Source of the DNA: Escherichia coli
Lineage (GTDB): Bacteria > Pseudomonadota > Gammaproteobacteria > Enterobacterales > Enterobacteriaceae
Direction: 5' to 3' (one strand)
DNA length: 64,000 nt
Assembly (NCBI RefSeq): GCF_003018235.1
Contig: NZ_CP027437.1
Positions 62,033 through 64,000 of this stretch are shown piece after piece. Below the pieces are notes generated by a model that saw nothing but the letters and a program-made list of their open reading frames with translations, made no database searches and was not told where the DNA came from. Each line of letters begins with the position of its first letter. The first letter of the stretch is position 1. The translations under genes and the position numbers were made by a program.

Positions 62033-62856
62033 TTACGAAAGCACGCTCCCCGCAAGGACTGACGCCAGATAGTTTCTGTCCATGGCTGCCCTTTCCATTC
62101 AAACGTGAAATCAATAAGTTCATCAGGGACATCGCAAACAATATGAAGTCAGATTTCTTCTCTGCCGTGACTCTTTTCACTCATTGCGTAACTGTCATGC
62201 TCTGGATTATTTAATTCTTTCAGTGGAATTTTTTCCTCAAAGGCTTTATTTAGCCGCCCCTGATTTCCTTTTACAGCGAATAAATAATCACCTCCCTGTT
62301 TTTGTATCTTCTCTGCAATATCTTTCTGGCAACCCATCGCATCAGTTGTGATAATTTTTCCTTTAATATCCAACATGTTAAGAAGTTCAGGGGTAACTCT
62401 AATCTCATTGGATTTCTCATCCGTCTTGATCTGTCCGATGACCAGACTGTGCATTGTTCAGAACGCACTAATGACATGAATCGCTCCCCTGCGGCGACTC
62501 TTGTCATAAGAGTGCCGGAGCGTTTTTCCATCAATTGCAATGACGCCTTTATCATCTGAAGAATGGCAGTCACGCATCCAGTTAATAAAGCACTCGTGAA
62601 ATTTTGCAGGACTGATACAGGATACAACTCTGGCAATGGTATCGTGAACAGGAATACCATTTTCAAAATCACCATATTGTTTTAAAAAATCGAGATGTGT
62701 TTCCCCAAAATCCTCTATATCTTCCCAGCCTTCTGCACCAGAAATAACGGCACAAATAGTCAACAGTAGAATATCCGACAATTTATGTTCCACTTTCCAG
62801 GCTTGTCTGTAATCGGGAATAATAGAAATATGTTCCATCAGTTTTTTAAGTTCCAT
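62033..62856 (-). pseudogene. degraded H-repeat-associated (ISAs1-family) transposase
   Basis: N-terminus [21 protein letters not shown] matches H-rpt proteins; two in-frame TGA stops (after ...HVISAF and after ...HGREEI) and an internal deletion joining ...FEWKG to a shifted tail ...[17 protein letters not shown]. Confidence 0.8.
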
Positions 62857-63056
62857 TTTGTGCTCCTTAATTATGTAAGGAGTATTTGATCATGTATAAG
62901 CAATAAAAAACAGCTTCAGGTAATGAGGAATATCTCAATTTTTAAACATAAAATGCGAATTATTTAGCACAAAAAAGCAGCGTTACGTGATCTTTCCCTG
63001 GTGATAAACGAGAAATAAATAAAAGGGGCGAGGCTGATTTCGCCCCCTTTTATTAT

Positions 63057-63422
63057 TTAACAATATTTAACTTCATATTTCCCTATAATATCGAACACAT
63101 GGTCATAAGTACTGATAATTATGTGCTGAACTCCATCTCTTTGGATATCCTCTACTAAATCGAAACTTGATTTAGTATATTGTTCAAAAGGATAATCATC
63201 AACTTTGTATATAGATAACTTTTCAATTTTGCTAATAAAAAACTCGAGACTAATATCATAAGCATCTTTAATAGCAGGTTTGCAGGCAGACAACGATAAG
63301 GAAGCTTTGATGGTAAAGTTAAATGGATACAGATTTAACTCTGTCCCAGTTAAAATCAACGCATCTCGACCATATATTTGACCATATTTTGTTTCTAGTG
63401 CTTTTACAATCATATTAGCCAC
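63057..63422 (-). CDS. putative immunity protein for the adjacent Rhs C-terminal toxin
   Basis: 121-aa AT-rich ORF immediately downstream of and overlapping the Rhs CT ORF. Confidence 0.5.
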   Translation of the reverse strand: MANMIVKALETKYGQIYGRDALILTGTELNLYPFNFTIKASLSLSACKPAIKDAYDISLEFFISKIEKLSIYKVDDYPFEQYTKSSFDLVEDIQRDGVQHIIISTYDHVFDIIGKYEVKYC

Positions 63423-63882
63423 AACCTCTTGTCCTCACTGTTCTGCCGCCATTTTGAGTTGAAAATCTTCGATCTAAATTAATTTTTGACAATTCCTCTG
63501 GAGTAGCCCATCTCGAAGGAATCTTCGATACACCGGCTGCTTTGGCAGCATAAAGTCGTCTGTTATCTAAAGTAAAGACTGAATCTTTATGAGCACCTTG
63601 TGATAACAATCTCTCTTGAACATTTACAGGTAAATCCCGCATTCTAACTTTTCTAATAGGTTCAACGTGATTTATATATGACGGGTCATTTATAAGTCTG
63701 TGAATAAGTCCATTAACATTTCTTCCGTCTTCAAAAACACCATTCATACTATCTTGTGAGAATAGAATTGTTTTAGGACTTACTGGTGATAATCCAAGAG
63801 GATCTATCCATGATAACGGGTTTGGAACATAACTATAGAGGTTTAATCCCCCCTCCAGCCCTATCGGGTCAGGATGCGCAAT
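63415..63882 (-). CDS. Rhs orphan C-terminal toxin fragment (no start codon; last core residues plus variable CT domain)
   Basis: Minus-strand reading gives [27 protein letters not shown] (Rhs PxxxxDPxGL boundary) then about 125 aa of AT-rich sequence; in-frame stop just upstream at 63883–63885. Confidence 0.7.
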   Translation of the reverse strand: [155 protein letters not shown]

Positions 63883-64000
63883 CTACCTATCTGAACGATC
63901 GTACCATCAACTTCGTATATAAATTATCAAGACTGTAACGTCATAGCGCCATGACTTACTGTTATGATTTCATAAACAGGGAAGATATAATTCCTTACCC

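Follow-up and report, generated by a model that had tools for sequence, protein, structure and literature searches.

Introduction

Orphan rhs-CT/rhsI modules, in which a C-terminal Rhs tip and its immunity gene lie apart from a full-length rhs gene, have been described before, and it is the general view that such tips form a reservoir (Poole et al. 2011; PMC3150448). Here we describe an orphan of this kind on the minus strand at the right-hand end of a 64,000-nucleotide (nt) stretch of Escherichia coli DNA (contig NZ_CP027437.1 of assembly GCF_003018235.1; the whole stretch is referred to below as the window), where an Rhs tip and a small partner gene stand next to a decayed H-repeat insertion sequence (IS). 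The ybfO/rhsO-type fragments of the rhsC locus of E. coli K-12 are comparable orphan modules.

For the toxin itself the closest described group is Tox-ParBL1, which Zhang et al. (2012; PMC3482391) defined computationally: by prediction it has a ParB fold (a profile match of 93% to 1vz0 was reported for the type group), it conserves an N-terminal Ser and an [NT][RT][RT] motif, and it is carried on RHS, HINT or FilH proteins. The same work proposed it to be a nuclease. No experimental study of this group was found in the literature we searched. A ParB-fold tip of CdiA, ToxB, has since been reported to act as an ATPase, to leave DNA uncut and to be blocked by its own immunity protein (bioRxiv 10.64898/2026.05.05.722872). 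On the side of expression, Rhs tips of Salmonella Typhimurium are reported to have an internal promoter, P2, located in the core upstream of the DPxGL motif, and to be translated from a CTG codon (PMC7043789).

Modules of this sort, in which an orphan Rhs tip and its immunity gene adjoin a dead H-repeat, are ordinary features of a known kind, to which this locus adds the assignment of a fold and an exact junction at the boundary core. The interpretation that we favor, and consider probable, is that the window carries, at the distal end of the rhsC locus, an orphan tip and immunity cassette in which the toxin, of the Tox-ParBL1 type with a ParB/sulfiredoxin fold, is silent and the immunity gene is the part under selection.

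Results

An Rhs tip detached at the core boundary

Careful re-translation of the minus strand confirmed the Rhs core/C-terminal boundary that a sequence-only reading of the window had placed in this region. The DPxGL motif is present, as a DPIGL-x17-DPLGL sequence that starts at 63870 and ends at 63790, and its second half matches PxxxxDPxGL, the canonical motif at which the Rhs core ends. Directly after it comes the tip (codons 63789-63418), which runs from SPVSPK to RGCG and is closed by a TAA stop codon at 63417-63415; at 124 codons and 37% GC, relative to 63% for the Rhs core, it is very nearly the AT-rich domain of about 125 amino acids (aa) that had been described. A search of the window with the boundary core returned a match to itself only. 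An open reading frame (ORF) of 50 aa lies antisense to the boundary region (63786-63938, plus strand); nothing supports its being a gene, and it has probably arisen by chance.

What precedes the boundary proved to be different from what had been supposed. About 12 codons of Rhs core had been placed there, but an in-frame TAG codon (63885-63883) leaves just four codons (IAHP) ahead of DPIGL, these have no homology to the Rhs core, and in BLAST comparisons the homology to Rhs genes sets in precisely with the D codon of DPIGL, from its first base (63870). We also considered that a core remnant shifted out of frame might lie upstream (VQIGRLRI..., read in a different frame) and rejected this when alignment to a real core end showed no homology. 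In the ORF list there is no ATG, GTG or TTG ahead of M15 of the tip (63747), a codon that falls after the conserved SQD motif. That the tip is simply cut off by the edge of the window is ruled out by the stop codon and by a second contig (L005), which matches the window at 99.99% identity along 10.9 kb and continues for a further 3.5 kb upstream. First in that contig comes a main rhs gene, whose end reads ...YYDPDVGRFMVTDPIGLAGGLNLYAYAPNPLGWIDPLGL and whose 122-aa tip is a different one; a TPR-like ORF of 142 aa and a spacer of 136 nt then lead to the orphan. The main gene lies 1.1 kb upstream of the orphan. With its TAG codon, its unrelated upstream sequence and a separate main rhs gene close by, the tip is detached both from an Rhs shell and from an initiation codon, and the earlier description of it as a displaced orphan with a stop upstream and no start codon stands.

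The same tip at the end of full-length Rhs genes

Counterparts of the tip came to light in a survey of 5426 complete E. coli genomes. The 870-bp block from 63870 to 63001 is 97% identical to the 3′ end of a gene for a 1558-aa Rhs protein, together with its downstream neighbor, in strains 05-3629 and RM9387. There the gene order is ansP, vgrG, a DcrB-related gene, rhs, a small ORF, a convergent symE-family gene and pptA, that is, the vgrG-linked rhsE locus. Because the tip and the downstream ORF form the 3′ end of full-length Rhs genes elsewhere, with homology that starts at the D codon of DPIGL, the boundary and tip in the window are, on these alignments, a true orphan of an Rhs tip that is still attached to full-length Rhs in other strains; an agreement of 97% with annotated Rhs 3′ ends along 870 bp does not arise by chance. 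The layout of toxin followed by immunity gene, read from the window in the first place, is thereby borne out, since the same tip ends full-length Rhs genes in other strains and the same ORF follows them.

The cassette was detected in 85 of the surveyed genomes, near full length in 35 and with less than 80% query coverage in the other 50. Where it is near full length it is the end of a full-length Rhs in both loci examined, and in the examples of partial coverage examined an ISEc1 element cuts the tip after boundary codon 22 and the small ORF is kept. E. coli D7 (contig L001, 11979-14094) shows this arrangement: the same ParB-like tip is cut by an intact ISEc1, whose right end is at the equivalent of window position 63804, and the immunity gene is retained. 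Truncation of the D7 type is listed for about 50 other complete genomes as well, and in D7 a different orphan boundary (DPIGLAG) lies to the left of the intact ISEc1.

The orphan differs from the main-gene copy at 26 of 870 nt. There are six synonymous and four non-synonymous codon changes in the toxin frame, five and four, respectively, in the partner ORF, and no stops or frameshifts in either.

A predicted ParB/sulfiredoxin fold

The sequence-only reading could assign no motif to the toxin, and as far as sequence matches go we fared no better. No Pfam or NCBIfam family matched it, and searches of the PDB with the single sequence and with alignments of 19 and 63 sequences returned chance matches only (FtsH, alpha-Rep and 30K protein). 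Scans of the 63 family members gave no match to PF02195 (ParBc) at E<=1 in any of them and no consistent Pfam family. A profile search of 1.84 billion representative proteins retrieved 691 relatives, in all of which the domain is C-terminal, on carriers with RHS_repeat, PT-HINT, TcdB/SpvB or DUF637 (CdiA-type) domains; MafB carriers, which would have linked the domain to the type member of Tox-ParBL1, were sought among these relatives and none was found. Because of this C-terminal position on RHS, PT-HINT, TcdB/SpvB and DUF637 carriers, the domain is by its distribution a widespread polymorphic-toxin tip.

A fold can now be proposed, however. The AlphaFold2 model built from the 63-sequence alignment has a predicted local distance difference test score (pLDDT) of 94.4 and a predicted TM-score (pTM) of 0.85, and the top 30 Foldseek matches to it were all ParB, Noc, KorB, Atu1540 or sulfiredoxin chains (best E 0.019, query TM-score 0.51). 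The toxin domain is predicted from this model to have a ParB/sulfiredoxin fold. Two motifs are conserved in the family: [ST]11-Q12, close to the N-terminus, and D75-N76-R77-R78. Of the 63 sequences, 61 have S or T at position 11, 61 have N76, and all have R77 and R78. The window copy has kept every invariant or near-invariant residue. In the model R77 and R78 are placed where a strand runs into a helix, a spot that we take to be the position of GxxR, the motif that binds phosphate, in structures of ParB and sulfiredoxin. With its N-terminal [ST], its [NT][RT][RT] motif and its carriers of the RHS/HINT/FilH type, the domain fits the published description of Tox-ParBL1, a comparison made by description (the type protein is Neisseria NGK_2271).

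The partner ORF as candidate immunity gene

The partner ORF follows the tip at every locus examined. It had been read as a 121-aa ORF overlapping the tip, and such an ORF does exist, starting at GTG 63422 and overlapping the toxin stop, but the start is most likely ATG 63413, judged from RefSeq annotation in other strains and an alignment of 36 homologues; the resulting product of 118 aa begins 1 nt after the stop and there is no overlap. In other strains the protein is WP_000635646.1, annotated directly after the Rhs gene, from which the window copy differs at 4 of 118 residues. Homologues number 54, in Enterobacterales, Gilliamella and Vibrio, all unannotated and with a conserved motif, LSTYDHVFDIIG. 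Both the toxin and the partner family occur in E. coli, Salmonella, Cronobacter, Gilliamella and Pectobacterium.

No match to the partner ORF was found by sequence in Pfam, NCBIfam or the PDB, a profile search of the PDB gave only TRAP1 (E 0.85), and Pfam scans of each family member showed no consistent family, neither SUKH nor Imm44. From its position and its co-distribution with the toxin it is the candidate immunity protein for this tip. The exact protein is recorded on 23 contigs, in at least four distinct places.

The H-repeat and the surrounding locus

Because ybgA (DUF1722), phrB, dtpD and ybgI lie downstream of the H-repeat, the gene order identifies this region as the distal end of the E. 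coli rhsC locus, beside ybgA-phr. Cassette homology ends on the right at the base before the IS (Table 1).

Table 1. Features of the orphan cassette and its flanks, in window coordinates.
Feature	Position	Strand	Basis
AT-rich spacer that separates the orphan from an immunity-like gene, outside the window, of the main rhs upstream; holds TAG 63885-63883 and IAHP	63871..64000	(-)	Translation, contig comparison
Rhs core/tip boundary, 27 codons, including the PxxxxDPxGL motif	63790..63870	(-)	Minus-strand translation; alignment with full-length Rhs genes
C-terminal toxin domain of the orphan Rhs tip, 124 codons and TAA; ParB/sulfiredoxin fold (predicted), Tox-ParBL1-like; motifs S11-Q12-D13 and D75-N76-R77-R78	63415..63789	(-)	
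Candidate cognate immunity gene, intact, 118 aa from ATG 63413 (alternative GTG 63422, 121 aa)	63057..63413	(-)	ORF list, synteny, homologues
GC-rich hairpin flanked by T runs, resembling a terminator on either strand, at the cassette end	63021..63050	(-)	Hairpin scan
Remnant (18 nt) of a convergent symE-family gene, from its 3′ end; closes the cassette next to the IS	63001..63018	(+)	Homology to strain 05-3629
Decayed ISEc1 (ISAs1 family, H-repeat; ybfD position), both ends kept; transposase start at 62856	62023..63000	(-)	Pfam and alignment to the intact ISEc1 of D7

The transposase of the H-repeat matched the Pfam families DDE_Tnp_1_assoc (1e-34) and DDE_Tnp_1 (9.5e-11), and both terminal repeats of the element are present, which places it as ISEc1 of the ISAs1 family. 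Compared with the reference that we used, an intact 1291-bp copy in strain D7, the window copy has 27 mismatches in a block of 886 nt and two in a block of 67 nt, an identity of about 96-97% at the nucleotide level. It cannot encode the intact 378-aa transposase: a TGA codon replaces Ser133 (62460-62458), a second in-frame TGA is found at 62151-62149, and a frameshifting deletion at 62090/62089 has removed 313 bp (IS positions 912-1224). The decayed H-repeat with two nonsense codons and an internal deletion had been recognized from the letters of the window, and the comparison with D7 agrees on each count. An early label of SymE, from a BLAST search with the whole region that was swamped by ISEc1 copies, was misleading and was resolved by splitting the query.

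The closest complete genome, that of strain AF40 (L004), has the same decayed ISEc1 with the same deletion from window position 62975 down (IS position 26 on), and the decayed IS and everything downstream are 99% identical in the two. Because AF40 has the same allele, the decayed element must be old at this locus. The first 25 bp of the IS and all sequence upstream differ between the window and AF40, therefore the exchange point between the lineages lies inside the left end of the IS. The orphan in AF40 is a different one and retains at least 45 core codons.

At the other flank, the spacer is identical in L005, where it comes after the 142-aa TPR-like ORF, and the upstream 130 nt had no match in the surveyed genomes even with blastn. 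Just outside the window, upstream of 64000 (L005 2578-3529), the 122-aa tip of the main gene reads SKRCDFLGRTPGK...PPIIK, and the 142-aa ORF that is next to it has weak TPR matches. This tip has no Pfam match, and neither it nor the 142-aa ORF matched anything beyond the core boundary in the surveyed genomes.

At the inner end of the cassette, the hairpin falls inside the block with 97% identity to the rhsE-locus cassette, and homology to strain 05-3629 reaches locus position 10870, which is 18 nt inside symE (CDS 10853-11095, opposite strand). A symE-family (type I toxin) gene comes after each tip/immunity pair in the strains with the rhsE locus.

Discussion

A probably silent toxin and a retained immunity gene

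What, then, would such a cassette do for its host? Building on the anatomy, homology, orphan status and predicted fold set out above, we infer the following about toxin silence, immunity function and toxin chemistry. In other strains the cassette is the working C-terminus of the 1558-aa Rhs encoded beside vgrG and the DcrB-related (Eag-like) gene, and, by analogy with characterised Rhs proteins, this Rhs would be delivered by a type VI secretion system and its tip freed by autoproteolysis after DPLGL. The orphan tip is severed from the Rhs shell, from the start codon and from the internal promoter borne by the core, and because it has none of these, the toxin is most likely not made in active form here. 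The sequence upstream of the orphan has 32% ungapped identity to the Salmonella P2 region, versus 65% for the neighboring main gene, and by this measure the Salmonella-type internal promoter region is absent from the orphan. The intact immunity gene would then be the selected part, giving protection against relatives that fire this toxin, and it may be transcribed by read-through from the upstream rhs operon, which is possible because a terminator scan predicted no terminator in the spacer.

As for the chemistry of the toxin, it probably binds a nucleotide or phosphate ester, because in the model the invariant DNRR stands at the strand-to-helix turn that is the site of GERR in ParB and of the phosphate-binding motif in sulfiredoxin. 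Killing would come about either by hydrolysis of nucleoside triphosphate (NTP) or phosphotransfer, as in ToxB, or by nuclease action, as was proposed in 2012; given the analogy with ToxB, a nucleotide-dependent mechanism is at least as plausible as a nuclease.

There are several observations that weigh against this interpretation. The case that the partner ORF neutralizes the toxin is one of synteny and co-distribution. Promoter-like sites are no commoner than chance (four found, 5.5 expected) and transcription of the immunity gene is assumed. The CTG of DPIGL (63858-63856) is retained and could be a non-canonical start, as in Salmonella, which makes low-level translation of the toxin possible. 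Finally, DNRR has D where ParB, sulfiredoxin (Srx) and ToxB have G.

Other explanations for the cassette

Of the alternatives, the one that survives best, although we think it unlikely, is that the orphan serves chiefly as a spare warhead, which a full-length rhs gene would capture by recombination at the conserved boundary, re-arming the cell with a new toxin. This would accord with the general view of orphan tips as a reservoir (PMC3150448) and with the intactness of the tip and all its conserved residues. The 81-nt boundary is, moreover, about 96% identical, with three differences, to that of rhsE-type main genes elsewhere. Against it, the adjacent main rhs in L005 shares no more than the opening 16 nt of this boundary (GACCCGATAGGGCTGG), and the rest of the 81 nt diverges; 16 nt would be a poor substrate for RecA-dependent recombination, and for this reason capture by the adjacent gene through homologous recombination appears unlikely. 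The window holds no second match to the boundary core, so an rhsE-type partner gene for capture is hypothetical, and the orphan itself has no core remnant.

A further possibility, to which we give little credence, is that the cassette is a functionless relic of tip displacement, carried passively with a dead IS. It does adjoin an element that is clearly decaying, its toxin is without a delivery route, and elsewhere the tip is often incomplete (coverage below 80% in 50 of the 85 genomes, with ISEc1 cutting the tip in the examples examined). Yet there are no stops or frameshifts in 729 coding nt, while the adjacent IS has acquired two stops and a deletion, and synonymous changes exceed non-synonymous ones. 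The immunity gene, furthermore, is kept even where the toxin is truncated, and the occurrence of the exact immunity protein on 23 contigs, in at least four distinct places, also speaks against passive carriage. The least likely alternative, and one that we would largely discount, is that the pair is an internally expressed module resembling a toxin-antitoxin system, as for main and orphan tips of Salmonella Typhimurium, in which toxin made in the producer modulates growth or stabilizes the locus: there is the precedent of translation from CTG (PMC7043789), the equivalent CTG is retained, both genes are intact and read-through is possible with no terminator predicted in the spacer, but the P2 core region is missing, no ATG, GTG or TTG precedes the conserved SQD motif and promoter-like sites do not exceed chance.

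How did the tip reach the rhsC locus?

Because the cassette retains the end of symE and adjoins the IS at a junction, the sequences indicate that its source was an rhsE-type arrangement and that it arrived at the rhsC locus next to the H-repeat. By what route could this have happened? A possible model is provided by the rhsE loci of D7 (L001 3955-11071) and MP1 (L009 1-11167), in which displaced tips are separated by units of about 7 kb that consist, in order, of a tip, an immunity gene, symE, a helix-turn-helix (HTH) gene and genes for a DNA primase and a XerC-type tyrosine recombinase. The next tip begins exactly at GACCCGATAGGGCT, 0.9-1.0 kb past each recombinase gene, the displaced tips share a sharp left junction at GACCCGATAGGGCTGG, in diverged copies the homology ends 14 nt into DPIGL, and in MP1 two units stand in tandem. 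In structure, these units resemble an integrative element that would carry a tip of its own and insert into the DPIGL-coding sequence of rhs. A literature search on DPxGL and integrase, judged by titles and the openings of abstracts, gave no description of such an element.

The window cassette keeps the symE remnant and the same sharp junction as the D7 and MP1 units. No integrase is found in its lineage between the two cores, those of the main rhs and of the orphan, and site-specific insertion is therefore only a possibility at this locus. We put forward tentatively, and as more doubtful than not when taken together, two linked readings: that the orphan arose not by ordinary homologous recombination but by insertion of the cassette at an att-like DPIGL core of 14-16 nt, by way of an integrative family dedicated to the re-arming of rhs, and that the tip of the ParBL1 type would kill as an NTP-dependent enzyme, like ToxB, and not as a nuclease.

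Orphan Rhs tips such as this one may be regarded as records of past arms races between strains and as a store of immunity genes. Some 0.6% of the complete E. coli genomes (35 of 5426) have the toxin family at near full length, on a full-length Rhs linked to a type VI secretion system in the two loci examined, and other lineages keep the antidote only. The group of toxins with a ParB/sulfiredoxin fold to which it would belong was predicted in 2012 and is absent from Pfam, and following the 2026 report on the ATPase ToxB a small relative that is carried on Rhs and has a known partner gene lends itself to learning what ParB-fold tips do. The exact DPIGL junction and the integrase-bearing units, for their part, may point to a site-specific route of Rhs tip exchange.

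Comparison with known systems

The H-repeat resembles ISEc1 and the other H-repeats of E. coli (ydcC, ybfD and ybfL) in its terminal repeats and in its position beside rhs tips, but differs from them in that its transposase has been inactivated by the two TGA codons and the 313-bp deletion. Similarly, the cassette has the arrangement of the orphan rhs-CT/rhsI modules (PMC3150448), that is, a detached tip that begins at the DPxGL boundary, with a small AT-rich ORF after it, the pair being located downstream of a main rhs and beside an H-repeat/ISAs1 element at the rhsC locus (ybfA...ybgA-phr); it differs in that it has no core fragment and in that its tip belongs to a different toxin family.

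With ToxB the toxin would share the character of an antibacterial polymorphic toxin tip of the ParB/Srx fold, in the window a predicted one, with a small immunity partner and a conserved Arg in the phosphate-binding motif. ToxB, however, was found through PF02195, has the motif GNHR and is located on CdiA after VENN, whereas the window domain is on Rhs and has DNRR; it lacks both the PF02195 match and the GxxR P-motif that characterize the ToxB type. The closest likeness is to Tox-ParBL1. The partner ORF, which by Pfam is neither Imm-SUKH nor Imm44, sets the window apart from that group, and the subfamily of the window toxin has an extra helix (DLPxxVQxRLLSQG, residues 52-65) that is absent from shorter relatives. 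In common with Tox-ParBL1 it has the predicted ParB fold, an N-terminal Ser/Thr, an N-R-R motif comparable to DGHHR/GxxR of ParB and a C-terminal position on RHS, HINT and filamentous-haemagglutinin carriers.

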